Shown one piece after another: positions 12,014 through 52,269 of a DNA stretch of 64,000 bases. How positions within the stretch are numbered: the first letter of the stretch is position 1; each line of letters starts with the position of its first letter. Below the pieces are notes generated by a model. The model did no database searches. It was given only the letters and a program-made list of their open reading frames with translations, and was not told the DNA's origin. A program made the translations under genes and the position numbers. This DNA is from Psammoneis japonica (lineage: Eukaryota): contig QPGO01000038.1 in the NCBI GenBank assembly GCA_008632985.1, positions 335,939-399,938 of the forward strand, read 5' to 3'.

Positions 12014-12590
12014 GTGTCAAAACACAGCGGCAGCGCGCAGTTGGGCGCAGCACCAGTGCTCACATCAGGAGCACAGGCCATCATGCATTCAGATTTATCT
12101 TGTCCTGAAGATTGCAAAAGACAGTGCCATTACCCAACCTTTCCAGAATTGATTAAGATATAAAAGTCATCATAGATTCAAGACATGTTTGCTTGAATAC
12201 TACGAATTGCTGAACAATTGCGCGATACACGTGCCCGAAGGGTGATTGTTGCTTCGGGCACGAAATTCGAGCTTCGCGCACGTAGAGACCGTAGAAAATA
12301 TACCAGCATTCGAGAATGTCCGATTTGTGTAGATCACGTAGCACAGTACCACAGAGGTCATTGATGAAATTACTTTAACGACTCATGCGACTACAATGAG
12401 ATTTTCAATACCATATACTATGTAGAATGGACATCTGCGCGAAGGAAGAATGTTGCTTCGGGCAACGATATTCGACCTTCGGGCACGTGTGTCGCGCAAT
12501 TGTTTTGCAATTTGTAGCACGCACATTGTGTCAAAACACACAGCGCGCAGTTGGCAGCGCAGCACCAGTGCTCACATTAGGAGCACAGGC
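12014..12590 (+). repeat. ~65-bp dispersed direct repeat (12014-12078, 12528-12590)
   Basis: Both copies read gtgtcaaaacac...cagcgcgcagttgg...gcgcagcaccagtgctcacat(c/t)aggagcacaggc. Confidence 0.85.
12200..12517. mobile_element. MITE family 2 with ~42-bp TIRs
   Basis: Left end ctacgaattgctgaacaattgcgcgatacacgtgcccgaagg matches the reverse complement of the right end, ctacaaattgcaaaacaattgcgcgacacacgtgcccgaagg; flanks are TA (left) and CA (right). Confidence 0.75.
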
Positions 12591-12859
12591 GCTTGCACAG
12601 CATCGCAGAGAGCAACACGCACGTTGCGTGGAAACGGCCGTTTCTCGCTCCCACCACCACAAACACACAAACATCATCAACACGGAGCACCTGCAACAAT
12701 GGCCATCGCCGCTGAAAATGAGCATCATCGATTTTGCGTTGACACCATTTGACCTGCTGTTGTCAACCCAAAAACCAGTTCACAATGAAAACAAAATGGG
12801 AGTGTTCTCTGGAGACGAGGTGTGCTTCTTCATTCTCACATTTCCAGAACTCATTTCAT

Positions 12860-14330
12860 TTTCCCTCCCACCTTGCCACGAAAACTGCTGCTGGCATCGT
12901 GCCAGCGCTTCCCACTTTTGCACCATCCTTTGGGGAATGATGACCGGCTGGCTTGCTTGCTGGGAATCGTCTGCTTCAACCGTCCAGGTCACATTGTTGC
13001 AACGGCAGTGGCTGTGTGGGTCCCTGCTTTCTCCTCTGTTGGAACAGATGCAGCAGCCATCTCCTTGGCAGCAAGGCTTTCACCTTGAGGTTCCATGTTG
13101 AATGTGCAGCTCCAAGGTTTTGGAATCTTTGTTGCTGTCCAAAGTGACAGTGCTGATGTTGTTCTCCTCCGGGGCGGCTTGCCTTCTTCATCGGAGCAGG
13201 TGGCACAAGAAAATGAGCTCTTGCTTTCATCGTCTGCCAAAACACAGTGTGCGCTGGTCATGCTCGCAGCAGTTTTTGCCTCTCAAGATGTGCAAAAGTG
13301 GGCCAGATTCTGTGTGCGCAGGACTCAGTGTGTTTTCTGCACAAATCGCCAAAGTCACCTCTCCAGCTTGAACCCCCTCAAGGATGATGGAAACTTGAAC
13401 ACAACAAAGCATCCAGGCTGGTCAACTGCGCTCCCCTCAACTTGTTCATGGAGAAAAACTGCAAGTTTCCATGCATTTGTTGTTTCCCACAGCTCTTCAA
13501 AACTCGAACGTCACAATTTTGGAGCCTTGTCAGCATCAGTGTGATCCCGGCACTCCTGCCCTCCTTGCGGCACTGGAAGGGCTTGATGGAAGCTGCACAG
13601 ACAGCATCACAAGTGGCCTCTTTGTGTGCATGCAGCACAAAGTGGTGCTGTCCTTCTTGTGAAAAAGTGCAAAAGTGTGGTTGGAGCAAGCAACCAGCTC
13701 TCTTCCTTCCTCAAGGGGCCCATGCTCACTCATCAGAGTGTGGCTGGTTTGCAGCAAGAGCTGGAGCAGTGGCAAGCACAGCCACCTCCTCACAAACAAT
13801 GCATGACAGTGGGATGTTCTGAGAACCAAAAGTGTGCTGCATGTGGTCACAAAATGCTTTGGCCCACTTCACAACAGGTGGAGACTTGGAGATCTTGGGG
13901 ACAACTTGATCATTGTCTTGCTCACACTGTGGAGCCTTCCGAGATCTCCGGAAATTCTTGAGAACAGGACTCCAATGCATGTTGGCTGCAGTGAGCTCTC
14001 TGCCAAGTGTGCCACAACACTTGGCATCTTGCAGAGCTGCCTTCAGCTGTGCACTGTGCTTTTGGCAAAAAGAACAACAGAAGCAGGGGTTGGAACAACT
14101 GCACCTGCAGGAGTGCAAGGGTTTGGATCAGTGACATTTCCTCCTGTGAAGGCTTCTTGAGGTTTTCAAATGGTTGCTTGAGACCTTCCTCATCAACATC
14201 CATCATGTCATTGACAAACTCAAGGCCTTCGACCATGAGCTGGGCACAAGTTGCATCAGGTGGCACTGTCTGATCAGTGTCCCCTGAAAGAAGGCATTGA
14301 TTTGTGTGGCGGCAAATGCTGTGGCAATCA
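12860..14330 (-). mobile_element. Degenerate CoDi-like Copia gag
   Basis: Fragments AKCCGTLGRELTAANMHW, VPKISKSPPVVKW, NIPLSCIV, APALAANQPHSDE and EAT...CAASIKPFQCRKEGRSA resemble diatom Copia gag with Y->C and R->C/H changes. Confidence 0.75.
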
Positions 14331-14789
14331 GCCAGCAGTGTGGCTCTGACAAAGTGCAAAAAGTGCTTCAATGAAAAAAATGCAATCTGTTGAAATTGTG
14401 AGACCTCTGTTGCATGGAGATTTTTGCATTGCACCACAGACCCAAAAATGTCAATGACATCAACAAATGACCAGGGCATTTCCAGAGCATCATGCACCAG
14501 CATGTCCAAAGAGTTTGTGGACACACCACTGAAACAAGCCAGCAGTCCTCTGGCTGTGCCTTGTCAATCACACAAGGACCAGAGCCATGAAACTCATTGC
14601 CTTTGGGAGCAGGGCACATGCAGCTTTTGATCTTTGGTTGATGCCAATGAGCCTTTTTGTGACAACACTCCTGGCTCATTTTTGTGCATGCTTTGTGTGC
14701 GCCCCCCAGCTCTTGCCCTGCCACAGCAGCGACAAGCACCCAGTTGAAGGAGACAAAAACGGGAGCTTCGCTCTTTGAACTTGGGCCAA

Positions 14790-15480
14790 TCCGGTGCGGC
14801 CCGATTGTTGCATGCACTGCCAGCATCCAATGGAGGACCAAGATCACATTCTACAGTGTCCCCATGATGAAGAATGGCACAGAAAGTTTTTGCAAGGCCT
14901 GCGGAAAAAGTGTGACGACATTCACACATCACCATCCAACTGTGATTTGATCCTTTCATCAATCAAGACATGGTTCCGAGAGGAAAATTGTGCATTCGGA
15001 CGGTCTTCATGGGAGTGTGTTGGCGGTTTTCCGATCCCAGGATGCTGTTGGCTGGAGGCATGTCTTTGGTGGACGTTTTTCCTGTGAATGGAATGTGACA
15101 CAGCAAGCTTGCCTGTTGTCCAGTGGACTGCATCAGGATCTTTTGGACAAAGAGCAGCTTTTGGACTGGGCAGCAACTGTCGGCAATTGTGTTTGGGAGC
15201 AATGGTGGGAGTTGCGGGACTCTCATGACGACAATGTGCACGGCCACGATTCGGACACTGGGAAGTCATCCCAATGGAGAGACGCTGAGGCAGAGGTTCA
15301 AGCCATTCACTCAAGATCAGACGAATGTCTTGCAAAGGACAGATCACAATTGTTCGATTTGGTTGAAGAACATCTCACACATTCCACCCATTGCATTCGA
15401 AAATGGCTGGCTGTGGTCAAACTGATGTTCAAGTTGAGCATTGAAGAAGCCAAGCATCCAGCTGCACGTGGAACTTGAGC
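14790..15480 (+). mobile_element. Degenerate non-LTR retrotransposon ORF C-terminus
   Basis: CMHCQHPMEDQDHILQC zinc knuckle followed by QDAVGWRHVFGGRFSCEW and WEQWWELR...VHG, typical of LINE-like ORF2 tails. Confidence 0.6.
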
Positions 15481-16659
15481 TGTCGCAAGTTGCTTTGGCA
15501 TGGCATTGCCTGCGGGTGATGCCAATCCTGGCCAATTGTTGTGTGCTCCTGCCGCACCATTGGTGTGCTGGGGGTGTGGGTTGGCTTGTTGCCAGAGTTG
15601 TGGGGTGGAAGTGCAGCAGCACTTTAAAGATGGAAGTTTGGTTTCGTTTTGTTCTTTGAACTTGGGCCAAAGTTTTTCCATGTGGGATGGGCAGCAATGA
15701 GCAACATGAGAATGACCTCAGCTGTGGTGTCACAAAGTAAAAACTCTCCATTGATGGGCCCACTTTGACCACTTTTGCTGTCAGCTTTTCAGGCTCTGTC
15801 TTGATTGGAGTCATTTTGTTTCCAGTGATTTCATCTTCAATGCAACCGGGCCCCCCTTGATCTGCCCAACACATTTTGGGCTCTGACACTTCCACGTCTG
15901 CTGGCGGCGACATTGTCCTGCAGCAGTGGGGCATCTTCCATGAGTTGTTCATCACAGAATTCTCAAAAATGATGAATCAAGATTCCTTGCTTCCTTTTTC
16001 TGCTTTCTTCTCTTTAGTCAACATGCTTTGGAACCCAGCGCTGGTGCAAAAGCCACTGAAATGAGAGATGGACCATCAAATGTCAAAGTCATTGGGTGTC
16101 ACACAACACAATGACTTGCAGGACAAATGACAAGGCCAAGACAGTGCTTTGTGTGATGGCTGCAAAGCCACCAAACAACAAGTGGCAAAAACCTCACTTG
16201 GAAGTGTGCAGAAGTGCAAATGTGAGGATGAGTGTTGCTGCAATGAGAGTGACCCATCAACACCCAATGGGCTCATGCACTCTTTCTTTGCCAATCAGTT
16301 CCAGGCATCCTCAATGAGGGGGTGGTGCTGGTCCTGCTCTCTGCAAGCACTGAACAGCGCCATCTCTGAGAGGGGTTCCACATGTTGAGACAGGGAGGTG
16401 TCAAAGCCCTGTTGCAAGATGCCACCAACACCACAATCTTCCAAGACAGCCAGCCAAAGCAGCATTGCAAAAATGGCTCCAATGCCAGACTCCACAAAAA
16501 ACATGTGCACAGGGTGGCAAAATGCATGTCCAAACCCCAGCCTCTCACTCTCATCGCTGCATCAACTGCACAAAAACCTCTTTCTTCTCAGACTGACTCA
16601 CTCACAAGCAGCACACCAAGGCAGTTGGGATCAAGCCTTCCAACAAGCACGTGGCTGCG

Positions 16660-16905
16660 TGAAGTGATCAGCCCCACATCTGCATCAAACATTTGGGGCT
16701 CAAGTGTGCAATGATTGCTGGCTGATCCAATGACAGCCTGCTGACAAACATGACTTTTGCTGTGAGGTGCATTTGCTCATGCTTGCTGCATGAAGTGATC
16801 AGCCCCATCTGCATCAAACATTTGGGGCTCAAGTGTGCAAATGCTGACTGATCCAATGACAGTGTGCTGACAAGCATGACTTTTGCTGTGAGGTGCACTT
16901 GCTGC
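16660..16905 (+). repeat. ~130-bp tandem duplication
   Basis: tgaagtgatcagcccca...catttggggctcaagtgtgcaa...catgacttttgctgtgaggtgca occurs twice. Confidence 0.85.
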
Positions 16906-17872
16906 AGCGCATGTTGCTGGCAACTGTTGCACTCCTTTGTCTGTGCATGGCTGGTCCACTTTGTGCATTGCGTGCAGCAAGCTTGATGAAATGGCACCAC
17001 AATGATGTGTGACAAACAAAGCATCATGTGTGTTGGCATGCAAAAGCCCCAGAGTGTCTCACATCTTGTCGGGCAAGCCCGAGGCAGGTGCGCTTCCAAA
17101 AAAAAAAGAACACGTTTTGCTCCAAAGTGTTGAGCAGTGTGTTCTCCATGTTGGCCAGCCTCCTGTCAAAATTGTGTGATTTGTTGGGTGCTGCTTGCCT
17201 TGATGCATGATCTGATGGACCAAGATGCTGGGGCAAGAGCCTGAGTGCTCCCATTTTTGTTTGGCTGACGCGCCAGTGGAAAGTTGAAGACGAGCCAGCG
17301 CAGCCTCCACCACAACAAAAACAAGAGAAGCTCCATCTTGCAGCAGCATGAGACACTCTCTCATTTTGTTTTTGCAGGATGTCCAGCCCATGTCAATGAG
17401 AGCCAGGCACCTGCACACCAAACAAAACCAAAAGCACTGACACAACTGCAGTGTGAAACCAGCGTGTGCCCCGCAACAAGTGGAAAAACATGTTTGTGGC
17501 AAGTTCATTCACTCAAGAGCCAAATGCCATCAATGTGGACAAAACACAGGCACACAAAGAAATGTCAACATTGTTGTTCTCGATTTGTTGGTTGTGGGCG
17601 GAATTGGATTTGGATTGTGAATTTGAAATTTGAAGATTTTTTTCGTCAGTCAGTCGCTCGGCAAGTCTTTTGCATTTTCGACGGTTACCGTAAAGTGTAC
17701 GTAGGAATTAGTAATGTTTCTTGAAAGTACTGAATTACCACGAATCTTCTACATACGAAATCATGTTATTAATTCTACAGATATACTACACAAAAATAAT
17801 AGTGATTGACAAATTCAGCAACGGTCACGACACAAACCAAAAAAGTTGTTCGTTCGCGCTCGATTTTCGATC

Positions 17873-21580: not shown

Positions 21581-21871
21581 GATGATGGAACACGATGAAT
21601 GACATTGAGGGCTTTGTCAAGGCTAAAAGTTGAGACTCTACACAATGCCGGATGCAGTGATGATAATCTTCCAACATAATCATAAGTACAGCACCCCGCG
21701 GCACGCGGCTCGCAGACAGCGTTGTTTCTGCGCCGACTGTACGTCGACGTGATCTTCCATGTTGCGAGGTCGACAAGCGTGCCATTAAATGCACCGCCAA
21801 GGTGTACACCACCTGGGCTCCCAGATTAGCTGTCCGGTTATTCTGATCTAGTTTTTGAAGAAAAACATTCT

Positions 21872-22480
21872 TCAGAAACAAGGCAGACAATGGCGTGGCA
21901 GTGAAAGTCCACAGCAGCTGCCTTGCAATGGTGATTGAGGACTCTCCTGTTGGTTTCCTGGGGAACATGCCAAGAACCATGGTTGGTTGGTGCAAGCTTT
22001 GTCTTGGGCAGATGCATCACCTTGTTGTCCTGGCAGACAAGGATTGTGCCCCCCCCCCCCCCCATCATCAGAGTCCTGCTGCAGAACCAAGAGGCAGCAG
22101 ACAATGGCACGACAGTGCAAGTCCACAGTTGCCTTGCACTGGCAATGCATCACTCTGTTGGGTCTCTGGGGACATGCCAAGAATTGTGGTTGGGCAGTGC
22201 AAGCCTTGTCTTGGGCAGACGCAGCCCCTTGTTGTGTCCTGGCAAACCAAGATTTTGCCCCCCAGCCCTGCTGCAGAAACAAGGCAGAGAACAGTGTGAT
22301 GGGGCAAGTCCACAGCTGCCTTGCAACAGTGATGGTGAAAACTCAGTTGAGTCCCTGGGGGCATGCCAAGAACCATGGTTGGGCTGTGCAAGCCTTGTCA
22401 TGGGTCCACACAGCACCTTGTTGTCCTGGCAGACCAGGATTTTGTCCCACCAGTCCTGCTGCTGAAACAAGGTAGACAGC
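21872..22480 (+). repeat. Three-unit tandem repeat, unit about 190-205 bp
   Basis: cagaa(a/c)caag...aagtccacag...catgccaagaa...gtgcaagc...tcctggca repeated three times. Confidence 0.88.
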
Positions 22481-24466
22481 AGCATGACAGCACACGTCAA
22501 TGGACCACAATGATGGTCACAGCAATTGCAGCGCTGTTGCAGTCTGTGTTGTCATTGTTTCTGCTTTGGCGCTGCACCGCTGTCTGCTGTCTGCTGTCCT
22601 CTTGTTTTCAAATGGGGTCCACACTGTGGTGTTCATTGCGGGATGCCCCAAGGCTTGTTGATGACAGGTGCTGCACTCTTGCAATTGATGTCATTGTTGC
22701 TCAATGCCAAAGCACAGCTGTTTCCAACACTGGCATCACAACTGAGTTCTGCCATCGCAGCTGTTTTTGCACTGCTCCATTGATTTTAGATGTTGCATCT
22801 TCAGCACTCTTTTGTGGAACTGAGAGAAAAATTTTGAGGGAGGGCCACGACAATGGAGAAATGAGATTGCCAACTGAGTGACCACCCATGATGCAAGAAG
22901 CTTCCATTTGTCTTCAAACAAGTTGCCACAAACTGCACTGACAGAGTCTAAATGCCAAACAGCTTTGGCAACCAAGTGAGCATGCAGGCCACCTTGTTCA
23001 AGCAGCATCCACACATTTCAGAATCTGGCAGTTGACAAAACCCTTGCACTTGACATGGACTTGATCATTTGGTCCAGCACAAGGGCCAGTCTTTCAAAGC
23101 CACACAGAACTGACATGGAAATCCTTTCTGGAACTTGTTCCTCTCTTGCACAACAGAAGGGACTGTTTCCTTGGCAAAGACTTTGTCAAACTTGTGTGCA
23201 AGAAGTGACGTTGTCGCGTGCACGAGCCCTGGCTTTTCCCAGCAGCACTTGTGACAGCACATGTGCAGGTCCCCATGGCCACCCAAACAATCAATTGCTC
23301 ATGTGCACTTTTGCACAGCATGGGCAACCCACTGTGGGGGTGCTGTCTTTTTTCCAAAAGACACCCCACCACATCCAAAGGCTCAGCTGCGGCTGGAACA
23401 AATGTCAGCCCCTTGTTGCTGCCGGTGGTTTTTGAACAAGAGCAATGTGTGGTTTCCTTTGGGGGCTGCTCATGGAAGAGAAACTTTGGCATGCCACCAG
23501 CAGCACAACTCAACTGTCAAGTCTCCACCAAGCCATCAGCAACAACACTTGGAGGCACCAATGGCGCAGCTGTGTCTTGGTGTCCAAGAGACAAACAATG
23601 ACCACAAGTGCATTTGAAAAGTTGGGCAAGAGTCATCACACCAAAAGACAGCCATGCAGACTGTGCACACCAGCGCTCAATTGGAGAATTCTTGGATGAC
23701 AGAGCCAGTGCCCAGATGAGATTTGCGCCATTGTTGAGTTTGTCTGGCTTTGACCAACAGCCAGACACTTTGAGTTGCCACATTTGCTTCAGAATCTGAG
23801 GCAGTTTCTGAACCTCATCAATTGATGCATTGTTCAGAAACCTCTTCAAGCATGGATGGCATGGATTTGGTTGCTCATGTGTGGCACAAAAGCAAGCATG
23901 GTGAGCTCTCTCTCCTCCTGCACCAAACCAGGAAAGAATTTAAAAAAAGATGCCACATTGTGAGATGAAGTTGCACATGAAGACACACTCTCACCACAAC
24001 AATGATGGCAGAAGAAAGACAAAAATGGGCACCACCATCATTTTCTCCTTCAAAACAGCAGGCCGTGATGTTTGTGATGTTGTGCAGCACATTGCAATGT
24101 GCGTGCTTGAAGAGTGAAACACATGATGGAACAAAGGCTCATCATGCACTCAACTTCACTCATGGCTGCATGCACACAAACAGTTGGTCACAATGACTCG
24201 CGGTTTTGGTTGATTGTGTCAAACCAAAATGTTGGTTGCAGTTTTGGCTCACATTTTCCAGCTGGCATTCTGCTGCTTCTCCAGCCAGCTGGTCACTGAA
24301 GTTCACAAGAAGATCATTGATTCAACACAACTTGAATGTGACCCCCATTCAAGAAAAGAAATGGCAGAAAACAGAATCAGGAAGTGACTTCATTGGCTGA
24401 CAATTTCTCAAGCTGAGCTCTGAGAACATCTCACAGTTTCCTACAAAAAAGTTTCTCATCACCACA

Positions 24467-27390
24467 ATGATCTGCGGCTTCCTTTGCGTGGCCACCACCC
24501 TTCCATTGCACATGAGCAGTGTTTCTGTCCATGGGCACATGAAGTCTCCTGGGTCTTGCAACTTTGTTGCTTTTGAGGATGGCAAGCACTCACCTCTTCT
24601 TGCTGAGGACCCCCAAATCAAGGCATGTCTGCACAAGAGCTCAAGCCTTGCATCATGTGAAAAATGTGCACCGGTTCTTGTGTTTTTCATTTGCACCATT
24701 TCTTGTGCACAGGATTGTCCCCATTGCCTCAACTTGGGAGGCACTCTTGCCAGGCACGGGTTGATGGTGGATCGCAACTGCGATGTGCCTCTCAATGCCT
24801 TGGGCTGTCCAATGCATGCCAACCCCCAGATTGTCCATCAGGGAGGACAAGAGATCACCACTGATGTTGTCCTTTTGCCGCCCACCACAAGGGCCACTTT
24901 GTCTGCAAGGCATGCCCTGTTCAGGAGGGTGAAGTTGCCCCTCCCAGGTGCAACATGCTTGAAGAACAAGTGTGAACAAAAGCAGAACAAGGTGCAAAAG
25001 TGGAAATTGTGAGATTCATTTCTGCTCAATCATTTTGGGTTTCTCCGAACGGGTTCTCAATGGCCTGAAGCTTTTGCACTGCTCCCACAGACAAAAAGCC
25101 TTTCAGAGAATGAGATCATGACAACAGATTGTCCGGACATGATTGACATTGACACATGACACATGTCAACATCATCGCATGACCACATTTGCAATTTTCG
25201 ACATCCGATCAATTCTGTGTGATTGATCTGTCCTTCGTGCGAACCCACGATTGACGTGCAATTGAAGTGCAAACTCATTAAAAAAAATGCACAGACATGC
25301 ACACATGTGACACACATGACAATGGCACAGGAGTGCTTTGATGAAAACAAGCTCAAGTTTGTCAAGGACAACCTGTGCGGTGCACCCAAGGATGACAGCC
25401 ACGTGGAACAAGCATGCATTGCTCCAAAGTCCCAATCAAATGCTGTTGTTGACAGCTCAGAGTTGGTGGTGTGAAGTTTTCTCACGATTTTCAAGTTGCC
25501 TTCTGATCTTGCTGGAGACTTGGTCTTGATCCAGTGGCATTGCTTGACTGCCAGCAGTTGTGTCTGCAAGGGGGCAGCATCTGTTCCATGACCTTCTTTG
25601 GCTGCCCCAAACATGGGTCCTTGCAAACCAATTCCAGAAGATGGGAACAGAGTCCCCAAACAGGTGAGCAAGCTGTGCACTGTTTTTGCATTTGAGGCTT
25701 TCAAACAAGCAGATCTGACTCAGATGCAGCCTTGCCCATTCAGTTCTGGAACCGTGCAGAAGTGATGACAGGACCATCTGGACCACCCACTTTGACTCCA
25801 CCTCCTGCCATTGCTCTCACCCTGACACCAACTCTTCCAATGCCACCGACCCCCACTTCACCTCCTGTTTCTGGCACTGTGGAAGACTTGCATCTCATTG
25901 CGTGCCTCAGCAACTGGCAATCTTGTCCCATGGCAGCACAGGCAGAAAAGTGCACACTCTTTGTGATTGCCTTTGCCATCAGTCATCAGTGGGATCCCAC
26001 CAAGAACCAGCGCAGTGCGACTTGTGAGATTTCCACTCCACTTTGCAACAATGCTCCAAATGCCATGCTTGTTCAAGAGCGGCAAGCTGCCAGCAAGAAA
26101 GTCATCCTTGGCTTTGGTGGTGCCAGAATGGGCGGAAGCTGGAATGGTGACAACAATGATTGTTGGGAGCACTGCTGTGGACATGAGACCCAAGTTGTGG
26201 ACCAGCAGCTGTGACTTCCATTGCAGACCAACTTGGACTTTATGGTGTTGACATTGACTGTGAGAGCACATTTGTGAAGACAATCAGAACAACTCGGGTT
26301 TCACCAAGGGAGCAGAAGCCCAAAAGTTCTTGACTGATGTCACTGCTGGACTGCACCGGAGTCCTCCAAATGGATCAATTGTGACCCGCGCTCCCATGGA
26401 ACCCGATCTTGTCCCTGGTTCAGTGCACTGTGACATTCTTGTCAACACAGCTTCCAGTCTTAACTTTTTGATGCCTCAGTGCTGCAACGGGTGCACCAGC
26501 CCTGCATTGGATGGAATTGATGGGACTGGTGCAGGCAATCAGTCTGCTCTCACTCATTGTGCCAATGTGGTTGACAATGTGTTTGAAGGCGATGCAATGA
26601 AGATGGTGTTTGGATTTTGCACCTCTGACTGCAGTGGCACCAGCTCCAATGCCAAAGCCAACCAAGCTGCTGCTGTCATCTGTCATGGTGGATCTTGTGA
26701 CACACTGCAACTGCAATGGTGGCACCTTCTTTTGGGTGAATGAGCACAGCACAAATGGTGATTAGTCGAATGCCATCAGTGCTGCCATGCAACCAAATGC
26801 AGGATGTTTGGGTGGGCCAATGCCACCCGGACCTGCACCAATGCCTCCTCCCACAGTTGGAGTTGCTCAGCCTCCTGCCACCGGTGGCACCGGATTGATG
26901 CCAACTCCCACTGCTGCAACAACCCCACCTCCTGTGGTTGGCACAACCCCCTCACTGACCCCAACCACCACTTCCCCATGTGCCATGTGTTGCAAAAGAA
27001 AGTGGAGAGACCAGAATTAAGTCAACAAATGCCTGCACCAAGTTCCATCACTGCAAGAATGGGTTGGTCGTTGGATTGCCCATTTCTTGCTCTAACGGTC
27101 TCTTGTTTGATGAGACAAATCAGTGCTGCAACCATGCCTGTTTGGTTGCTTGTGGTTCTGAAGAGTGCTCCTTGCCAAGCAGACCTCCTCCCACACCTGT
27201 TGCAAGGTGCGGAGTGAACTGGCAGGATGCGGAGACCAGCTGTGGTGCCGTTTGCTGCACCAACATTGATTGTCCATCTGGGCAGCAGTGTCATGCTGGA
27301 ATCAACTGTGGCCAAAGGAGGTTGCCATGCGGAAAAGCCTGCCAGTGTGCCAGATGCGGTGCAAGTGGAGAGTCAAGGGCTTGTTGACAA
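24467..27390 (+). pseudogene. LPMO - Pro/Thr linker - GH18 chitinase - CBM14 - Cys-rich (CBM18-like) pseudogene; paralog of 33469-34938
   Basis: LPMO motifs HGH.KSP.S.NFVAFEDGK, DCPHCLNLGGTLAR, HHKGHFVCKACP, VLIQWH, FWN.AEV; GH18 motifs KKVILGFGGA.MGGSW, GVDIDCE (DxDxE), LMPQCCNG; introns retained; frameshifts and stops. Confidence 0.9.
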
Positions 27391-27804
27391 AATGCACGAA
27401 GGGAGCTGTGCATCTTCATCAGGTGTCATGTTGATCTAAAATGCATTGTTTGAGACAAAACTCAGTGCAATCGCACTTTCGGCAAAAGCATGCAAAGAAC
27501 AAGAAGCACACAGCTGCTCTCATGGCATTGGAGAATGCCCATGCCACCACTGTGCCAGCACCCTTTCAGATTGCCTGGTGCTTGTCACTTCTTCAATGCA
27601 GCCAATGCTTCAACTTTGATCAACATCAAGATTGACTCTTGCGTTGCGTTGTTGCTTTGCCATTGTGATGTGATCTTTGCAATGTTGTTGCCAAGAGCAA
27701 AAAAAAAACAAGCCACAGGTTGACAATCCTTTGTGATGGCAAGCACTGCCACACACTGTTGCAGACCATCATGCATGCTGTCATGCATCTTTCATGCACG
27801 TGTG

Positions 27805-28060
27805 CATTTGCATGACAAAAATTTGTCTTGGTGGTTGCATGTGGTTGTTGCACATGGTTGCACATGGTTGTCTTGTGCACTGTCACGCACTGTTGTGGAC
27901 TGTCACGCACTGTCACGCATCTCTCAAACACATGTCATCCACACGCCAAAAATTTGTCTTGGTGGTTGCACGTGGTGTCACACATGGTTGCACATGGTTG
28001 TTTGCACGATTTTGAAATTTTGCATGCCATGCAAGGATGGGCAGAATTTGTCACGCACCA
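27805..28060 (+). repeat. Nested short repeats
   Basis: caaaaatttgtcttggtggttgca twice, cacatggttg four times, tgtcacgca four times. Confidence 0.7.
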
Positions 28061-28379
28061 CGATGCTCTTTTGGTTTGTTGCCCACTGTCTTTTTGTTGG
28101 CAAGAATGCGTTTAGCCACTGGCACATGCTGCAAACATCTTGTTCAAAAAATTCATCCTGGAAGCTGTCCGGGGTTGTGCGTGTCAACCTGTTGGCTTTG
28201 AAAGCACACTTGCAATGCCACGCCCCAACAGTTGCATGGGTGAGAAGGATCTTGTGAAGAGATCAGCAGCAGAAATGTTGAGGAAAGCAAAGACAAAAAG
28301 CCATTGTTTCATCATGGTTTTGTTGCATGTTCTAGCTTTGTCTGCCATTTTTCCAGAAAGAAATGCATCCACTGGAGAT

Positions 28380-29830
28380 GGTGTTCATGGGATGTCCAAG
28401 CAATGGCAGTTCCAATTGGTTGGAAACATCAGCACAACATGTGAGATTTCATCCCAAAAAACGATGTCCTAAAAACGCTGGCATTGAAGCTGTTGAAGGC
28501 TTTGAACGCGCCAAATGCAGCCAATTTGTCAGCTGAACATGGTCAAACAGTGTTGCAGACTTGAAAAACATCATCACGGTTGGAGGCTGGCCCAACAAGC
28601 CCAACATTCCGGGTGTCAAACAGGCTGTCAGACGCGTTCCAGCCCTAGGTGGGACTCCGTGTGACATTTGGCCCGTAGAATTCTACGTGCGAGCTCCATA
28701 GTACGAGAATTTAATTAATGGATATATTTATCTTCAACATCAAAAATAAACGGCCAAGTTTGTGGTACAATTATGCCTCTTACCACTCGACGTTTTTGCA
28801 AATGCACCTGCCCTACGCGATTCTTAAGACATTATAGAATCGCGCTGTAACAAAAAATGTCAAAAGTTTTTGGACGGATCGCTCAATAAGTGTACCGTAA
28901 AATGACACAAAATATCAAAAAATCACGTAGAATTCTACGTGCGCGACATACGACGAGATTCAAAAAACTATCGATGTCACAGTTCAGTAGTACGAGGTCC
29001 CACCTAGACCTGGAACGCGTCGTCACTTCAAATGAATTCTCTGACCTGAAGGAGTGGCCAAAGCACATCGTCACTGTGGGAGGTGGTCTCATTGCTCTCA
29101 AGTTCAAACAGACAATGAACGGCCTTGTCAGTGACATGACCCTCATGCATCGTGGAAACTTGTTCTTGCAAAGCTTTGATCAGCACATGTGAGAGCTGCT
29201 GTGAGATGAAATGCAGACAAATTCTAGCATTGATCTGCTGTCCAACACAAGTCCCGCTGAACAGCACTCATGTTGAATGCCATTGTGTGCTGATGGCAAC
29301 AGATTGCAACAGGAAGATTGAAAACTCAATCTAGATTCATCCGGAGTTGAAACATGCAGCAGCTTTGTTGCTGTCCATGAGTGCACAAAAACAAATGTCA
29401 GTGGTGTCTAAACTCTTGGTGACGCAACGGACCCATTGTGCTCTTGCCTGTCACCTCAGTGGAGGGTCACCAACTTTCTGATGCACTTTTTGGAGATCAA
29501 CATTGACCTGTTGTTGCATGTGCCAAGGATGCAGCAGAGAACTTCAAAGACATGACATTTTGCAAGACTAAATTTTGACCAATGATGCACTCTGAACTCC
29601 TGTGTCCAGAGTCAGAAACGCATGCCATGTCAAAAATCATCTTTCAGACAGCAACTGACAAGGTGGTTGGAGCTCATTTGGCAACAGATTCAGCCCTGCA
29701 GAAGCAATGCCAGGTGTTGCAGCAGCTGTCAAGATGGGAGCCACCAAGGCAGACTTGGACAACACGATTGGAATCCATCCGACATCAGTCAAAAAAGCAG
29801 CAATGATGCAAACGCTCATTCCAAGGTTGG
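28380..29830 (+). pseudogene. Glutathione reductase-like pseudogene interrupted by a MITE
   Basis: VGGWPNKPNIPG...AV|TSNEF.DLKEWPKHIVTVGGGLIA (frame restored when the MITE and one TSD are removed); DKVVGAHL; AVKMGATKADLDNTIGIHPTS. Confidence 0.88.
28631..29021. mobile_element. MITE family 1, young copy retaining TA and CG
   Basis: Left TIR gacgcgttccagccctaggtgggac vs right TIR reverse complement gacgcgttccaggtctaggtgggac; 4-bp TSD GTCA (28627-28630, 29022-29025); two internal CGTAGAATTCTACG palindromes. Confidence 0.92.
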
Positions 29831-30490
29831 GAAAAGGGTGGAAGAGTGGCCCCATCCTCAACTCCAGGTGTGCAACAACATCATCCCACAGCCTTTGGGT
29901 CAAAACAACCATTGAATGGTCAGCACCTCAAAGCACCTTTGGGCATGTGAATTGCATGTTGCATCATTGCAGGGTGTGATGAATCCACACATGACATGCA
30001 GGTGATCAGCGCAACACAATCCAGCACATGGCAGGTGTCAATGACACAAGCCTTGGGGCATGCGGCAACGAATGGCCCAGTGTGCACCCAAGGAAATGAA
30101 GAATGCTGAAGAGATGACATCTGGAAGAAAAAGACCAATGTGGTGCATGAAGTGAGACAACGGCATCAAACAATGTGCAACGACATTGCAAGCACAACAA
30201 CCATCATCGCAGTCCATTTGACATGCACACGGAACAAATTGCACGCAAATGAAGATCGCCATGCCACACTTTTAGAGTCTTTCTGCATCTGCAACACAAC
30301 AAGGAATGCTCAGGGCAATGTCTCCAGCCAATGTCAATGTCCATGTCACAAGACTCCAAAGTGCGCACACATTGGGAGGCACTGCTGTTCAACCTGCGTC
30401 ATTCTCCTCCAAGAGCACCCACTTTCTTTTGACAGCTTCACAAATGCTTTCAGTCAATCAAATGGGGGACTGCTGTAGAACCTGGCATGA

Positions 30491-30948
30491 TTTTACGTAC
30501 ATGCTTCACTGTGCCATAAAATTGATGGCACGACAAAAGCACAGTGGAAAGCCACAACTGCTTCTGACTGCATTTGACAATTGGAAGAATGCTCTGCATG
30601 ATGACAGTTGTCCTTTGACATGACTGACAACAAGTTGCGCTAGTTTGATGTCGGAACAGAAGTTGTGCGTCGATTGCAGCTCTACAAAGTGTCGCCAGAT
30701 AATTGCCTGCGATTTGCGTGGCAATTTGGCGAGCAATTTCCCGTGCTTCACCGTGGTGAACTTGGGAATTGTCCAAAACAGTCCTTCAAACAAAATTTGG
30801 AATGAAGAGAAAACATGCATCTAGGACAAGCTGGACAATGTCACTTTACTTCCAATTGTCATTTGGACGTTCTCCGCCACTTGCCTTTGTCATCGTGCTT
30901 TCACCACGTGATTTTGATTTGCAACACGGTGAAGCATGGACCGTAGAA
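30491..30948. mobile_element. Foldback/MITE-like element with long imperfect TIRs
   Basis: Left tt.tacg..catgcttcac.gtg...aaagcac...tgacaattggaag...ttgtcct is mirrored at the right end; intermediate TA retention; no TSD identified. Confidence 0.55.
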
Positions 30949-31722
30949 TTCTGCACTGCTTGAGTGCCGCAGTCCCCCACTTGCCCGATTTTGAAAAACT
31001 GAAAGCGTTCATGCCAGTGGGTTGCACAAAAGGGAAACTGGCAGGAGAGAATCCAACCATTCTCACCATCTTTATGACATTCTTGACTCACTTTCTTTCA
31101 TCCTGTTTTGCTTTCCATCCAGTGTGTGTGGTGAATCACAAGGGCCCTGAAAACAAAAACAAGTCACCGTTGATTTCCAGTTTCTCCTCCATCTCTGTCT
31201 TCAGTCAGTCACTCCAGAATTTTGGATCAGGTGAACAGTTGGGACGTTGCATCTTTGAATCTAGGCAGTGAAAGGCCCAAAACTGACTGTGGCTGTCAAC
31301 GGTGAGTCGCCAACGTGGCTGTTGCACAACAATGGTCTCAAAAGCTTTCACCCAAGCTTTTTGCATTCATGAGAGTCCTCAGACACTGCGCGCAGCAGAG
31401 GCCTCCATTTTTAATTGACAAAGGCTTGAAAGTCCTCGTTGCAGTGCGGTCCTCTTGTCAAACCCCCAATGAAAGCAGTGTTTGCACCAACATGTTCCGG
31501 TTGGCTTTCCCGGGATTCCTTTGATTGCATTGTTCCACAGCACCTTGGCTGGTCCTTGTCTGGACCTTGAAAGAATTCCATTTGTCAGGTGCGCAAACAA
31601 TGTGGCAAGGCGTGCCTCTTTCTTTTGTCTCTTGAGATGTGTGCTTGTCCTGCACTCACTCTCCCTCTCTTCTTTCCCTGCACATGTCTCCCTCTCACCC
31701 ACACAGTCAATCTTAAAGCAAC

Positions 31723-32112
31723 ATGTTAATGTCCAGCATGGCATCCGGTGTTGGGCATGTTGTGGAGCTCAAGCACCTTGACTTGTCAAACAGCTGCCTC
31801 GACCCAGCTTTTTCTGGTGACATTTTTCATTTGCCCTTTTTGGAGACGCTTTCACTGGGTGAAAACCACTTCACTGGTGGAACCGTCCCAGACAATTTTG
31901 ATGTGTTGCAAGAAGTGAAAGAGGTCCAGAAGAGCAACAACCAATTCATTTTGTTGCTTCCATGCATGGTGACACTCAGGTCATTAGAAAGCTTGCATTT
32001 GGAGGGAAATCCATTTGAGCCCACTGTTCCACACGTCTGTGGCGTCCCTCCAACAGATGAACCCAGCCAAAAACCAACAAACAGAGGCGCTGAAGCTTGT
32101 GAAGCCTTTTAG
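31723..32112 (+). pseudogene. Leucine-rich-repeat protein fragment
   Basis: LKHLDLSNS, LETLSLGENHFTG, LRSLESLHLEGNPF. Confidence 0.75.
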
Positions 32113-33468
32113 ATGCAATCTACAATCCAATCATGCAGATCCTGAATGGGATTGGGTGTGGCTTGAAGTGCACCTGAACTCATGCAGGGCCACCATTGAT
32201 GGTGCTGAAGTTGAGAAAGAGCAAGCAATTCTTGACAACAAAAAGCTGCATCGTTGGGCCACTGGGTGGCTGCCACGCTGTCTTGAGAGTGTCTCATCAG
32301 GTGACCAGCTGTTCTCCCATTGATGCCTGCAGAAACCCGCCCCTCAACACAGTCATGAACTGCACTCACAGAAATGTTTTACAAGGAACTCAGCTTGCTC
32401 AGACAAATGAGTGTGCTTCTTTGTGGCCAGCTGCAACGTGGCTGTTGCCGGCACTCTGTTGCAGCACAAATGAGTCAAAGTCCAGTGTGTTGGCTCAACC
32501 TTTTCATGTTGACAAATTGTGAGAGACCCTGTTGGGGCTGTGTTTAAAAAACAAGGGTTAAATTCCATGTGCCGTCATTTTGTTGCCATGGTGTTGGGCA
32601 AGAGCCGTCGACTCTCTGTGGGGCTTGGGAGCTTCTTCATGCTTCTCATTGGCAAAATGACTCCCTCAGAGCGTGCAGAAAGCATTTGAGTTTTTTTGAT
32701 GCTGATGTTCAAGACAGTTTCACTTGAATGTTGCTGACATGCAAGTTGACAAAATTGTTGCTTTGCGTGTCAGCCACCTGGCGTTGGAGCACGCCTCGCT
32801 TGCTCTGCTGGCCCTGCTCTTGATGTCATGAACTCTTCTCTCTCATGTTGTGTGACAAATGGGTGAGATTGCCAATGCAGAAATGATTTGCATCAACTGG
32901 CAAGCTGAGCACACTGGTGAGTTGGGCAGAGAGCAGGTCCAAGCATCGCTGCAGCTCAAGCTCATTTTTCAAGAACTTGGCTGCTCCTGAGCTGCTGCTT
33001 GCTCTTCTTTTGTTCTCAACATGATTTCTCTTGTGGCACACAATGGCACACTTATTGGATTTAACATGGCTGAGGCTGGAATGCTTTGAGTTGCTTGGCT
33101 GTCCACACACGAGCGAGGAGAGTGACGATCTGGGTGGAGCTTGTCTGCTGAGGTCATCGTGTCAGATGAAAAAGACATTTTGAAGGGGATCATACTTGTA
33201 CCGAAGACAGTCATTGGACAACATTTGATAATTTCGCAACAATAAAGTGAGACCAATACAATGACCCACAGCTTGCCCACAGCAACGTTTTCGTTGTTTG
33301 CGCCATCGCAATACCGGTACCGGTAATGTGAAAAAATCGTTACACCTCAAGACTGAAGACACAGCAGACCCACAGGAGGCACGGAGTTGACTAGAAGAGG
33401 GTTCAATCAAGGACTGCTCCCCCAACAGCTTTAATATTATATTGCAAGCCACAAGAGTGCAACAAACA

Positions 33469-34938
33469 ATGATGAACAGATTGATTTATTCGTCGATTGG
33501 GCTGTTTCTCACATTGAGCAACGTGGCAGGTCATGGCTACCTACTTTCCCCAAGGTCTCGTAACTTTGTTGCCTTTGAAGACGGAAAATACTGGCCGCTG
33601 TTGGCTGAGGATCCCAAAAAGGAGGTAAGCATAGCTTAATCGGAGTTGACACGCTGTGTGATTGAGAAGAGACGATTGACACCTATCACGTTCACCTGTT
33701 CCAATAGGATTGCCCGCATTGCCTAAACTTGGGAGGCACGCTTGCCAGGTGTGGCTTGACTGCCGACCGAAACTATGACGATCCCAAGGATGCCTTGGGT
33801 GGTTCACTCGCTCCCAATCCCCAAGCAGTCTACCAAGAAGGAGCGGAAATTACATTTGACGTTATTCTTACAGCACATCACAAGGGTCATTTTGTCTACA
33901 AGGCCTGTCCGATTCAGGAAGGAGAAGTGGCTACTCAGGCTTGCTTTGACGCTAATCCCCTCGAATTCGTAGAAGACAATCTCTATGGTGCCCCGAAAGA
34001 TGCCAACTACACGGATCGGGCGTACATTGCGCCAAGTTCACATCCGAATGCCGTTTTCGAAACGGCGGGAGTTTACGGACAGAGGTTTTCTCACACATTC
34101 AAGCTCCCTGTCGGTTTAAGTGGTAATCTGGTTCTTATCCAGTGGCACTATATGACTGCCAATAGCTGTAAATATGCTGGATACGACTCGTATCCTTTCC
34201 CTGATTCTTCGTGGGCGGCCCTCAATCTTGGATCATGTGAACCTGTCCCGGCCGATGGAAATGGGGTTCCAGAACAGGTGAGTCTAGTTTGCCTTTCGTA
34301 TAGTTTAACAAGAACTCTGCGCAATATCTCATTCCGATATCCTTGTTTAAATGAAAACTGAACAGTTCTGGAATTGTGCTGAGGTTACAATTCAATCTGC
34401 TGGACCGCCCGGGCCCAGTCCTTCCCCATCGCAAGCCCCTCCAACAACGCCGGCTCCCACGGTAGCCCCGACGCCTGCACCTACCCCACCGCCAACAACC
34501 TTCACTACTACTCCGTCTCCTTCCCTGTCTCCAACGCCGCCGACTTCTCCAACTCAGCCTACGGGGTCTCCTAGCATGTGTTGCGCAAGTGGTCAAACTT
34601 CTCTCAAGCCTTTTGATTCCTGCTCCAAGTTTTATCATTGCGTCAATGGAGTTGTGACTGGATCGCCTATTCCTTGTCCCGGAGGCACACTCTTTGACGA
34701 ATCGGCTCAGCTCTGCGACTATGCAGGCTCGGTTACTTGTGAACCTGAAGATTGTTCTTCCAGTGGCCCATCAACCACCCCGACGACGGCTGCTCGTTGT
34801 GGTGCCTCTTGGACTGATGCCCAGGCGATCTGCAGCTCTCCCTGTCAAACTAACACTAACTGTCCAACAGGCCAGTATTGTTGGGCAGGCATTACGTGCA
34901 GCCAGCGTCGATCCTTGAGGGGTGAAGCATACCCTTGA
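33469..34938 (+). CDS. Secreted LPMO (AA15/AA10-like) with Pro/Thr linker, CBM14 and a C-terminal Cys-rich module (exons 33469-33624, 33708-34277, 34366-34938; 432 aa)
   Basis: Signal peptide ending VAG|H gives His1; AHHKGHF; VLIQWHYMTANSC; EQFWNCAEV; peritrophin-like CSKFYHCVNG...CPGGTLFDE...CD; two phase-0 GT-AG introns. Confidence 0.9.
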
Positions 34939-38177: not shown

Positions 38178-38759
38178 TCATTGCAGTACGGAAGCGCAAG
38201 ATCGCTGCTCTGAGACACGCGCCAAAATAGAGAGCGGGACGCATGACGGACAGTCTTTCTCGTCCGACCTGCGTCACGCGCAACAGATTTTGTGCTGCAT
38301 TGTGCGAAGCATTTGTTTCTTGCAGTGAGCGATGAGGCCATGGCTTTGCGCCGCTTCACGACAAAAAAGGCTTCCTTTTGCAATGGCTGCCTGAAATCTT
38401 CAGGGAGAGTCATCAAAAGTTGTGATCTTGACACACAAGAAGGAGGAGCATTCTCTTCTCAGCAGCGCCGGCAGCCAGCACAGATCAGGTCATTGGGCCA
38501 AGGCAGCTCAGCACTCCCCTGCAGTTGTGCAAACCAGTGTGCAGACTCCAGCATCAAGCTGGACCAAGCATTGGACAGCAAGACAACTCTGGCCCCACTT
38601 GTGTGTGGCTGCAGAGCGACACATGGGGTTTGGGCTGAGTGAAAGGAGAGAGAGAGCGCTGATCGTCAGAGGTCAGTTGCCTCTCAAACAGCCAAGTCAA
38701 CAGTGTCAATTGGCACCCTGATTTTCATTTTCGTCTTCATCTTGGCAGGTGTCTGATGC

Positions 38760-39450
38760 AAATTAGAATTCAGAATCCATGAAAGTGCACATCCACCATG
38801 GAATTCTGGAGCAGCGGTGACTTTTCCACAGGTGCGCCCGACTCCCTCACACACGAGAAGCTCCTCTGCGGCTCTCAAGGACTGTTTTCCCATTTTTCTT
38901 GTTGCTTGAGCCAGCCTCCAAAGATGAATGTCAAAAAAGGTGCCATGACACAGAGAAACGTGTTGAAGATTGTGCGCACGGTGCTTCGAGCATGTGGGTG
39001 TGCATCATTGAGGCCATGCTGCTGTTCAAAACAATGATCAGATGCCGCTGCATTTGTGAAGAGAACCACCATCCACAATCCAAATGTCATGAGCCACCAC
39101 ACTTTCCACTTTTTGGGTGGTGTTGGAGAAACAGTTTGGCCCTGTTGGGTGCATGTGTCCATGAAAACGTCAGGAAGATGTCGGTGTTTTTGGAGTTGCA
39201 TTGTGCTGGGCATCACAAGGAGTGGCTCCAGTTGTTGCATGAGATGAGCTCTGAAAGGAGATGCCACATAAAGATTGAGCATGTCAATCAACTTGAAAGT
39301 TAAACAAGGCACACACAGGTCAACGTTTTTGGGAGATTGGATCCCTGTTGAAGCAACAAACCTCTGTTCAAAATGAGGGCTGATCTTTCTCTGCATGAGG
39401 ATGTCCTGAACATGACTCTACAACACGGTGGTGTTGCTTCTTCAGCCACA
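38760..39450 (-). pseudogene. ABM-like (antibiotic biosynthesis monooxygenase-associated) membrane protein pseudogene
   Basis: PPKKWKVWWLMTFGLW...VMAPFLTFIFGGWL resembles the PPxWK...W and P.l..lf..WL pattern of this family. Confidence 0.5.
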
Positions 39451-40829
39451 TTTTTTTCTGCTGCTGTGCATGATTTTCATTTGGTGAGAGCAAAGTCAGC
39501 AGCAAGAGCAGTTGGCTGGTCTATTGGCAATTGTTGAAGGAGAGATGTTGCTCCATGTTGGCTTCATCATCCCAGTGTGGGGCATGCTGCTTCTTTCAGA
39601 ACTTGAGGATGGCAATTTTTTTGAATGGCTGAAGAAACAAGAGGGTGTGGCTCATCTTCTGCCTGCAAAAGATTTGCCCTTGCTGAAAAAACATGTTTGG
39701 ATTGAAAACGAGACTGAGCAGACAAGATCACTCTCGATCAAGTGCTGCAGCACAAGGCCAGAACAAAGGCACACAAGTCTGAAATCAATGTGCAGCAGCA
39801 CGCCATTGCCACCGAGTTTGTTGATCAAGAAGTGGAACAGCAAGAGGTTCACATGCTCTCGCCGCCAAAGACTCGAAGTGGCGCTGTCACACAACTGCAG
39901 AAACTGTCTTTCAAACGGATCGAATTTGGTGGGGTGCCACCATGTGTCTGGTTCCTGCAGTGTTGCTGTTGGGTTTCACACCGGCATTTCGACGGGAAAC
40001 CCTCGGCTACAAGCAAAACGCTAAATGAGTTGCATCCACTGGAGTTGCTTGTGATTATGAAAACGTCATTGCAACCACAATTTTTGCATCTGAGTTGAAT
40101 GTCCCACTCCTCCAATGGCTTTTAGAGTTGATGGGAATTTGCTCTTGTCGGGAGCGACGACAGTTGCTTCTATCGGCATGAGTTGCATTTGGAGAGCCTG
40201 TGATTGTACGCTCGGCACTGAAGGCAGGCCCCATCACGATGCGACGTCACCATCAAAACTCCTGTGCAGGCAGAGACGGGCACCAATCGCCAGGCAAGGA
40301 CCATCTGCAGTCTGCATGTAGTTTGTCAGTTTCTACAGTTGCCGATCAATTTTTTGGCTGTGGTCTCTGATCCTCATGGTGGTCTGACCTTTTCAAGAAG
40401 TTCATCAGTCATCATGTCACAAGATCAGGCGACTTGCAATTCTTTTGAAATTGAGAGGCCTTGCCTCCATCCACTGGCATGAAGTTCCAGGATGCAAAAG
40501 GCATTGATTTCTTCTCCTGGTGGGCCCTGGCAACTGCAGCAAAAAATCTGCCAATGACCACTGTGACATGGTTTGCAGAGTTTGCTTCTTGGAAAAAATC
40601 AAATCAACTGTCCCACATTGATTCATTGTGTGCATCAACAAGCTCTCAACACTGCCGTTGAAGACATGATGCCAAACCCATGCTGGTCCCTGAATCTGCC
40701 AAGTTTCTCCAATGTGCCGACTTGAGTGCAGCAATTTCCTCCACCTCAAGCCTCACCCAGCTGGAAAAAACAAACAAAGTCACAGACTGATGTCATGGGG
40801 CACAGTCATTTTGGCACACGCTTTTTGAC

Positions 40830-41900: not shown

Positions 41901-42404
41901 AACAAAGCAGCAGATTTGCGTGCAGGAGCAGCATGATGACCACGGGGCAGCACAGACACAGCAGAGCTCCATTTGTGGCAATTTGTTGGAAATGAGGTCA
42001 GCAATTCACAACAGCAGCTTTCTTGGTTTCACAACACGGGGCGTTGGCAAAGCTCGAGGGCTGTTGCTCACGCCACATTTGAGTTTCTTTGGGGAGGGAG
42101 TTGGTGGCAGCGCACACTGGCTGAACCAGCTTGTTTCAATCTGTGTCGCTGCTGCCCTCTACAAGTCATCATTCTTAAATTCCAGCTTGTCGGCAGCCAA
42201 GTCCGATCTTGCAAGCGGAGCAAAGAATCATCAAACAAGATCCGCGTGGTCCTTCGCATGAGCACACGTGATCTTCGTCGAAAGGACCGCACATGTGCGC
42301 ACTTTGGCTGACACTTCAACTTGACACCCCCCCAAAAAAGATTTCAAGACAGATGTAGATCTCGCCTGCGCAACAAACGCACTCAAACGACGGATGCATG
42401 CACG

Positions 42405-51982: not shown

Positions 51983-52269
51983 GGCGGACAGTTATGGAAC
52001 GTGTCTCGAAGCTAGTGTCTATGAACGCAGTCTAAGCTTATGGGACGTGACAAAGGCAACACTTCGTCTTTATCAGAGTGCTATAACACACTAGTTTTCT
52101 TGCCAACGCCGCAATGGTTGCGGGCGACATTGTCTCCAACGCTCCCGTAGCACTAGTATTTTAACCCACTGTCACGTTGGATCTACAGAGGCAGGTACCA
52201 CAAATGAAATGATAATAATGTGAATAAAACTATACGTGATTGAAAAAATCTGAACGAATTGAATCGATG

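Follow-up and report, generated by a model that had tools for sequence, protein, structure and literature searches.

In a 64,000-nucleotide stretch of the Psammoneis japonica genome assembly (contig QPGO01000038.1; hereafter the window), the region 24467-27387 is confirmed, as judged from its sequence, to be an unprocessed pseudogene derived from a chitin-active LPMO_10-GH18-CBM14 gene of diatoms. The pseudogene lies in one of several bounded blocks in which TpA and CpG dinucleotides have been converted to TpG and CpA at the level of DNA, on both strands and nearly to saturation; this conversion either killed the gene or acted once the gene was already dead. We consider it likely that the pseudogene belongs to a silent, partly repetitive domain whose chromosomal DNA underwent saturating, dinucleotide-specific transition hypermutation. 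The window itself is diatom nuclear DNA with short GT..AG introns and ordinary eukaryotic genes, including those for SSRP1/FACT, a peroxidase, a CtIP-like protein, Sec10, PhyH and a Sac1-domain protein.

The dead gene runs on the forward strand from an ATG at 24467 to a TGA stop codon at 27385-27387 and is matched in tblastn by P0029, P0022, P0062 and other proteins, colinearly across changing frames. Exon 1 (24467..24622) has 156 nt, the length of exon 1 in an expressed LPMO_10-CBM14 gene located about 6 kb away (33469..34938, forward strand; hereafter the live gene), and it encodes the His-brace N-terminus as HGH, not HGY. Intron 1 (24623..24712) is placed as in the live gene, contains no TA and has an intact CAG acceptor; its donor has changed from GT to GC and, as the first-pass annotation had reported, begins GCATGT (24623), versus GTAAGC (33625) in the live gene. 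The first part of exon 2 (24713..24951), in which the reading frame shifts by +1 at 24874-24880 (tblastn frame 3 to frame 2), is followed by an intervening sequence of 376 bp (24952..25327), after which the second part (25328..25663) contains in-frame TGA codons at 25472-25474 and 25589-25591. The second conserved intron (25664..25743, GTGAGC..CAG) is free of both TA and CG. Finally, the last exon (25744..27387) encodes a Pro/Thr linker, the GH18 domain, a second linker and CBM14, and it has a TAG at 26763-26765 and at least four frame changes (tblastn frames 2, that of the open reading frame (ORF) bearing the GH18 motif, 3, 1 and 2). The whole gene thus has at least five frame changes and three in-frame stops (25472, 25589 and 26763), and the earlier claim that introns were retained holds for two of them, at positions matching those of the live gene.

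LPMO_10 membership is indicated by 102 diatom homologs that are colinear over 24479-25687 in tblastn; the dead fragments have no Pfam match to LPMO_10 at E<=0.01, as expected, because Tyr and Arg residues have been lost, and the GC donor at 24623, the frame change at 24874-24880, the two TGA codons and the 376-bp insertion show that it is no functional member of the family. The ORF at 26959..27384 (forward strand) encodes the CBM_14 chitin-binding domain (PF01607, 30.5 bits versus a cut-off of 22.1, E=4e-07 over 26959-27387), with KFHHC in place of KFYHC. For the region 26300-26695, PF00704 (GH18) is carried by the homologs, and the dead fragments themselves, interrupted by the frame changes of the last exon, have no Pfam GH18 match. 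The remnant GVDIDCE at 26244..26264 (forward strand) corresponds to the G.D.D.E (DxDxE) motif, which we take to be the catalytic motif of GH18 enzymes: it was counted in 71 of 141 fetched proteins, most commonly as GVDIDYE (30) and GIDIDYE (16), so that 46 of the 71 relatives with the motif share the form G[VI]DIDYE, in contrast to GVDIDCE in the dead gene. BLASTP of the motif-bearing ORF against P0029 gave no match.

The losses in the dead copy are concentrated at particular codons. All nine Tyr residues of the live gene that had been reported as Cys or His in the dead copy were found so changed, and a comparison of both genes with the 102 diatom homologs (tblastn; conserved columns defined by at least 15 aligned homologs and at least 60% consensus) extends the pattern. 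None of 18 conserved Tyr is kept in the dead copy (10 are Cys encoded by TGY, six His encoded by CAY, one Ala and one Val), and none of seven conserved Arg (two Gln, two His, one each Cys, Gly and Ser), whereas the residue is preserved at 258 of the 315 remaining conserved columns. The live gene retains nine of nine Tyr, three of three Arg and 138 of 147 other columns, or 150 of 159 overall. Transitions of the signature type fully explain 40 of the 82 altered columns in the dead copy (TA>TG in 16, TA>CA in six, CG>CA in 15, CG>TG in three) and none of the 10 altered columns in the live gene; the remaining 42, together with the insertions and deletions, reveal an admixture of ordinary decay.

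The same picture emerges when substitutions are tallied by dinucleotide over the 666 bp of DNA that can be aligned between the two genes. None of 25 TA sites of the live gene is kept in the dead copy, where 17 have become CA (nine) or TG (eight) and eight have other changes; of 34 CG sites one is kept, 22 have become TG (14) or CA (eight), and 11 are otherwise altered. The loss of Tyr and TA noticed earlier is therefore real, but a parallel loss of CpG had been missed. Relative to expectations derived from the non-block dinucleotide ratios of the window, the segment 24467-27390 contains six TA versus 96 (Poisson P=2e-33) and 45 CG versus 197. Both strands were acted on, as had been proposed: the block that holds the gene contains 784 TG and 775 CA, and Cys and His outcomes alternate along the dead gene (eight runs versus a chance expectation of 8.5, by hand calculation), with no long strand-coordinated tract.

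Non-coding parts of the dead gene are affected as strongly as its exons. Each of its introns, the 500 bp upstream and the 500 bp downstream contain zero or one TA, whereas the introns of the live gene contain five and seven and its flanks 14 and 23. Because introns and flanks are as poor in TA as exons, the process must have acted on chromosomal DNA regardless of coding status, which bears out the earlier proposal that genomic DNA, not RNA or complementary DNA (cDNA), was the substrate. A processed pseudogene or a copy of edited RNA was considered and ruled out by the two kept introns, the mutated flanks and the occurrence of both TG and CA outcomes.

The altered letters are present in the sequencing reads. 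Contigs built independently from a DNA run (X1, probably from the assembly's own sample) cover 23170-28611 at a depth of 63-70 with zero or one difference per piece; they carry the letters of the assembly, so the reads lack TA at the mutated sites and the claim of a dead copy stands. At an identity of at least 90% the dead gene is single-copy in X1, its depth of 63-70 comparing with 64.5 for the live gene. The bin 24872-25355, which spans the 376-bp sequence, has a depth of 12,122 versus about 65 elsewhere. This intervening sequence is flanked by CAGGTGC and CAGGAGTGC, contains a single TA, corresponds to a gap in the homolog alignment and has no counterpart in the live gene or the homologous proteins; no terminal inverted repeat was found in 24952-25327. 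Probably it is an old transposon insertion, itself hypermutated, rather than an intron.

The live gene consists of exons 33469-33624, 33708-34277 and 34366-34938 and was assigned by Pfam. Its model is confirmed by a contig of a second run (X2), which behaves as RNA in that it carries this gene in spliced form: the contig skips exactly the two introns, including 34278-34365, the counterpart of 25664-25743 in the dead gene. The closest relatives of its product are proteins of Ditylum, Skeletonema, Chaetoceros, Thalassiosira and Cyclotella with at most 65% identity (closest P0001). The dead gene had been described as a paralog of this neighbor, which is correct at the level of the family, both introns of the live gene being found at the same positions in the dead one, but not in the sense of a copy. 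The two genes are 69% identical over the alignable DNA, the GH18 domain is present only in the dead gene, and the live gene has 57 TA versus 47 expected. Since the dead gene is colinear with LPMO_10-GH18-CBM14 proteins, it is a family member with an additional chitinase domain and not a copy of its neighbor; by its identity, architecture and untouched composition, the neighbor is neither its parent nor a partner of the kind that repeat-induced point mutation (RIP) would require. Compared with natural diatom LPMO_10-CBM_14-GH18 proteins (P0029, P0022, P0062 and P0003), the dead gene is colinear over all three domains but broken, and its closest relative (P0106) is only 65% identical. A search for a closer intact copy likewise returned relatives of 65% identity at best, in a database that does not hold the organism's own proteome.

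Although the gene is affected as first reported, the signal is not specific to it: it fills a block of 6.6 kb (21849-28470), and this block structure had been missed. Using gaps in the distribution of TA and 500-bp composition profiles to set the edges, we delineated six sharply bounded blocks that total 26,409 bp of the window. Within the blocks, the 500-bp profiles give TA ratios of 0-0.2 and CG ratios of mostly 0.05-0.5, with TG and CA at 1.6-2.3 times expectation; CG ratios vary between blocks from 0.07 to 0.8. Measured against the non-block ratios of the window, the blocks together contain 100 TA versus 935 expected (a deficit of 835), 491 CG versus 1650 (a deficit of 1159), 2906 TG versus 1901 (a surplus of 1005) and 2963 CA versus 1975 (a surplus of 988). 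The joint surplus of TG and CA (1993) matches the joint deficit of TA and CG (1994), the other 12 dinucleotides barely shift, and the GC content is unchanged at about 48%. Exons, introns, flanks, a transposon copy and other gene remnants are altered alike, whereas the adjacent expressed genes are spared, non-coding DNA included.

Block 1 (1..3440) runs off the start of the window; like block 2 (12578..17686) and block 6 (52233..55310), it yielded no recognizable gene remnant. Block 3 (21849..28470) holds the dead LPMO gene and contains 15 TA versus 232 expected and 87 CG versus 418. Block 4 (29023..33053) contains Pfam-supported remnants of a glutathione-reductase-like gene and leucine-rich repeats (LRR; 31717-32109). 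The former pseudogene (28336-29976; IPGVKQAV ... VTSNEFSDLKEWPKHIVTVGGG) is split by a young transposon insertion, retains a Pyr_redox_dim remnant at 29659-29976 and, over 28890-29976, has 3o0h_A as its best solved relative (E=3.5e-10). Block 5 (38228..42356) includes remnants of a bestrophin gene (40837-41127, reverse strand) and of an M17 aminopeptidase gene (41669-41992, forward strand; 3ij3_A, E=7e-4), both found with Pfam. The earlier suggestion that members of cellular gene families were also hit is thus borne out by four such remnants in other blocks. In block 5, several unrelated cellular genes have been inactivated in a row.

Because TAA and TAG are almost absent from the blocks, stop-free frames are long there: 139 ORFs of at least 90 aa overlap across the 26 kb, on both strands and in all frames. 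Such TA-free DNA is a trap for annotation, yielding long spurious ORFs that mislead gene finders, and pseudogenes that have lost every Tyr and most Arg escape profile searches. A Pfam search of these 139 ORFs and of 133 of 177 ORFs of 55-89 aa (the other 44 being 17 within the dead gene and 27 beyond 41591) revealed no reverse transcriptase, integrase or transposase in the blocks, the lone extra match being a sub-threshold KxDL; an Rfam search gave no matches. When ORF P0104 of block 2 was compared with 1.84 billion representative proteins, it had one match, the repetitive Ig-like protein P0141, through one repeated stretch of 60 residues, and this was judged spurious. No X2 contigs fall within 21968-33099, which we do not take as evidence of silence. 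At the left boundary of this block, block 3, the segment 21118-21873 of normal composition is matched by a variant copy (X1 depth 135, also present in X2) that departs exactly at 21873 and continues with TA and CG. Elsewhere in the window, an open frame of 1382 aa on the reverse strand (57194-61342) has no Pfam match, an AT skew of -0.36, low TA and high CG; this compositional oddity differs in kind from that of the six blocks.

Transposon copies reveal the direction of change more clearly. The glutathione-reductase-like pseudogene is split by a high-copy miniature inverted-repeat transposable element (MITE; 28622..29022) with terminal inverted repeats and normal composition (TA ratio 0.73, CG ratio 1.25), for which the summed depth in X1 is 5e4-1e5. 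Its family is characterized by a length of about 400 bp, terminal inverted repeats of about 25 nt and a probable GTCA target duplication; a third run of the same sample (X3, 1439 records), which may be a small-RNA or targeted library, covers only this element, at 28682-29021. An older, hypermutated copy lies in block 1 (2979..3362). Among 30 TA sites of the normal element, 13 are CA and seven TG in the block-1 copy, four are kept and six have other changes; among 24 CG sites, 15 are kept, four are TG, one is CA and four are otherwise changed. Since 20 of 30 TA but five of 24 CG sites have been converted, the TpA process is faster than, and separable from, the CpG process. Judged from the alignment of these two copies, mutation occurred in place, on the host's own elements, and the site of the young MITE had been hypermutated before the element inserted. 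In the older copy, about 45 bp near window positions 3265-3300 (columns 325-360 of the alignment) retain all TA and CG, which may reflect local protection or later gene conversion.

Duplicated sequences provide a second view of timing. We counted mismatches between duplicates as swaps among TA, CG, TG and CA, and separately scored doublets that read CA in one copy and TG in the other, the outcome expected when one ancestral TA or CG is resolved independently in two copies. Five in-block pairs show, in order, eight swaps among 10 mismatches with three doublets, 14 among 20 with four, 24 among 75 with nine, nine among 42 with four, and one among seven with none; a duplicate outside the blocks shows four among 26 and no doublets. 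The left edge of block 3 carries a tandem repeat of about 205 bp (21870..22482), the units of which differ by nine and four CA<->TG doublets and within which a run of 14 C is found at 22050-22063. Moreover, variant X1 contigs of 21968-23100 (depth about 110) have CA>TG at 22263-4, 22846-7 and 23078-9. The presence of such doublets among copies indicates that block 3 includes repetitive DNA and that this DNA was mutated once it had been copied. Hypermutation was thus later than some local duplications and earlier than the insertion of the young MITE.

The survival of TA depends on its neighbors: YTAR sites remain at 35% of expectation, RTAY at 2% and mixed contexts at 8% (Y, pyrimidine; R, purine). 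Contexts with a pyrimidine on both sides have gained 687 in TG and 337 in CA, and in the MITE pair RTAR became CA in five of five directional cases and YTAY became TG in four of five. These data fit a preference, and only a bias, for A before a pyrimidine (5'-TAY) or, equivalently, for T after a purine (5'-RTA). A strict rule assigning the strand by TAY was dropped, as the Tyr codons do not obey it.

Conversion in block 3 has reached about 94% of TpA and about 80% of CpG sites; by a rough estimate, the TpA rate was tens of times background (conversion of 94-100% versus an excess change of about 6% at other conserved columns). In the mechanism that we favor, each TpA and CpG would be converted independently of the others, on one strand or the other, whether it lies in an exon, an intron or a spacer. 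The TpA arm would be enzymatic, acting either by a deamination of adenine that modestly prefers 5'-TAY or by a mispairing modification of T in 5'-RTA, and the CpG arm would be kinetically separate, probably reflecting deamination of 5-methylcytosine in methylated DNA. The process is presumably aimed at silenced or repeat-bearing chromatin and would spread over neighboring single-copy DNA, and the LPMO gene would therefore have been hit incidentally, unless the 376-bp insertion in exon 2 had disabled it beforehand. Tentatively, and at somewhat less than an even chance, we propose that diatoms, this species at the least, possess a genome-defense or silencing-linked mutator that rewrites TpA and CpG of targeted chromatin to TpG and CpA, the TpA arm being a DNA-directed adenine deaminase or thymine-modifying enzyme with the TAY/RTA preference, and that serves as a GC-neutral counterpart of RIP which permanently kills transposons and neighboring or redundant cellular genes.

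Several observations weigh against the favored mechanism. At 90% identity or more the dead gene occurs once in X1, and a search for a partner duplicate found none, which leaves a repeat trigger without support in its case, and targeting to silent chromatin is deduced purely from position. A MITE of very high copy number sits unmutated inside hypermutated DNA. The third, fourth and fifth in-block duplicate pairs differ by few signature changes (24/75, 9/42 and 1/7), and Tyr codons preceded by a pyrimidine give TG and CA in a ratio of 5:3, the same as those preceded by a purine (hand count). In addition, the frame changes of the pseudogene and the 42 of 340 conserved columns changed in non-signature ways indicate that it is not very young and that slow decay is mixed in.

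This last point leads to the alternative that survives best, although we regard it as unlikely: an old pseudogene in methylated heterochromatin would have decayed slowly and passively, without dedicated machinery, until its mutations reached a context-dependent equilibrium. CpG loss is usual in methylated DNA everywhere, the gene has its frame changes, three stops and non-signature changes, and the difference in CG depletion between blocks is what an effect of age would produce. However, TA has been lost more fully than CpG (6% versus 30% surviving), and we know of no spontaneous process that favors TpA. Passive decay is also difficult to reconcile with the high conservation of the columns other than Tyr and Arg, with two in-block duplicates that differ almost solely by signature swaps, and with sharp block edges, outside which TA persists in the neighboring introns and spacers.

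That the dead copy and the live LPMO gene underwent classical RIP, triggered by duplication, is very improbable. The two are linked members of one family, and diatoms carry DNMT4 enzymes related to fungal RID (PMC9998398); nevertheless, their low identity and differing architectures, together with the untouched live copy, speak against such pairing, and RIP makes TpA, which is here destroyed. We give slightly less credence still to an artefact of base-calling, polishing or base modification in a methylated region, or to foreign DNA of another composition. The blocks do resemble methylated domains, and the sole DNA run found is probably that of the assembly's own sample, but independent X1 contigs have identical letters at a k-mer depth of 63-70, the dead gene has frame changes and stops as well, its introns lie at positions conserved in diatoms, and a MITE copy of the host's own family was changed likewise in place. 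RNA-level A-to-I hyperediting of the ADAR type followed by reverse transcription and reinsertion would fit the change of A to G after T or U, which resembles ADAR neighbor preferences, but it is the least credible of all, given that the changes extend to introns, to the promoter side and through 3.7 kb of flanking DNA, that both strands are changed at interleaved sites, that CpG>TpG accompanies the TpA change and that other A contexts are untouched (AA ratio 1.21 versus 1.18).

A description of TpA-directed hypermutation (TpA>TpG/CpA) was not found in the literature for any organism, in a search whose coverage mostly leaves out subscription journals and which is no proof of absence. If its TpA arm is enzymatic, the process preferred here would rank as the first locus-directed A:T>G:C mutator of chromosomal DNA to be found in nature and the first RIP-like system outside fungi; if true, it would also explain how diatoms dispose of transposons and gene duplicates without a shift in GC, and would suggest a testable role for diatom DNMT4 and any chromatin-linked deaminases.

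The closest known system is RIP, with which the blocks share irreversible, near-saturating, dinucleotide-context transitions in chromosomal DNA, on both strands and in coding and non-coding sequence; sharply bounded compartments beside normal genes, in which genes and transposon copies are killed; and, in some duplicates, apparently independent mutation of the copies. RIP of Neurospora and Leptosphaeria reportedly also affects single-copy genes in repeat-rich compartments. In contrast to RIP, which turns CpA into TpA and yields AT-rich isochores, the blocks lose TpA with the GC content remaining at 48%, and mutation affects both A:T and C:G pairs. The hallmark of RIP is a rise of TpA at the expense of CpA and TpG; here TpA falls and TpG and CpA rise 1.5-fold. 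As regards copies, some in-block duplicates and genomic copies differ by CA<->TG doublets, whereas the single-copy dead gene has no evident mutated partner and its neighbor is untouched; the lineage, moreover, is a diatom and not a fungus. RIP requires a cytosine methyltransferase of the RID/DNMT4 type and takes place before meiosis. According to PMC9998398, many diatoms encode DNMT4, an enzyme of unknown function related to fungal RID, and diatom transposons are methylated by DNMT5; DNMT4 is a lead for the CpG arm only.

The decay of methylated repeats by 5-methylcytosine deamination resembles the CpG arm in that CG>TG/CA is confined to silent DNA, but it spares TpA and is normally far from complete at a stage when conservation elsewhere is still about 82%. 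RNA viruses and retroelements undergo A-to-G hypermutation of the ADAR type, which prefers a 5' U or T; however, it operates at the RNA level, is strand-restricted and requires a cDNA step, which is incompatible with mutated introns and flanks. The tRNA adenosine deaminases TadA/ADAT and the adenine base editors derived from them convert A to I, read as G, in a T-A-Y context that matches the modest 5'-TAY bias of the blocks, and we know of no natural DNA-directed activity of these enzymes. We file the hypermutation of the Psammoneis blocks as a variant of the RIP-like kind, with a substantial chance that its chemistry is categorically new.

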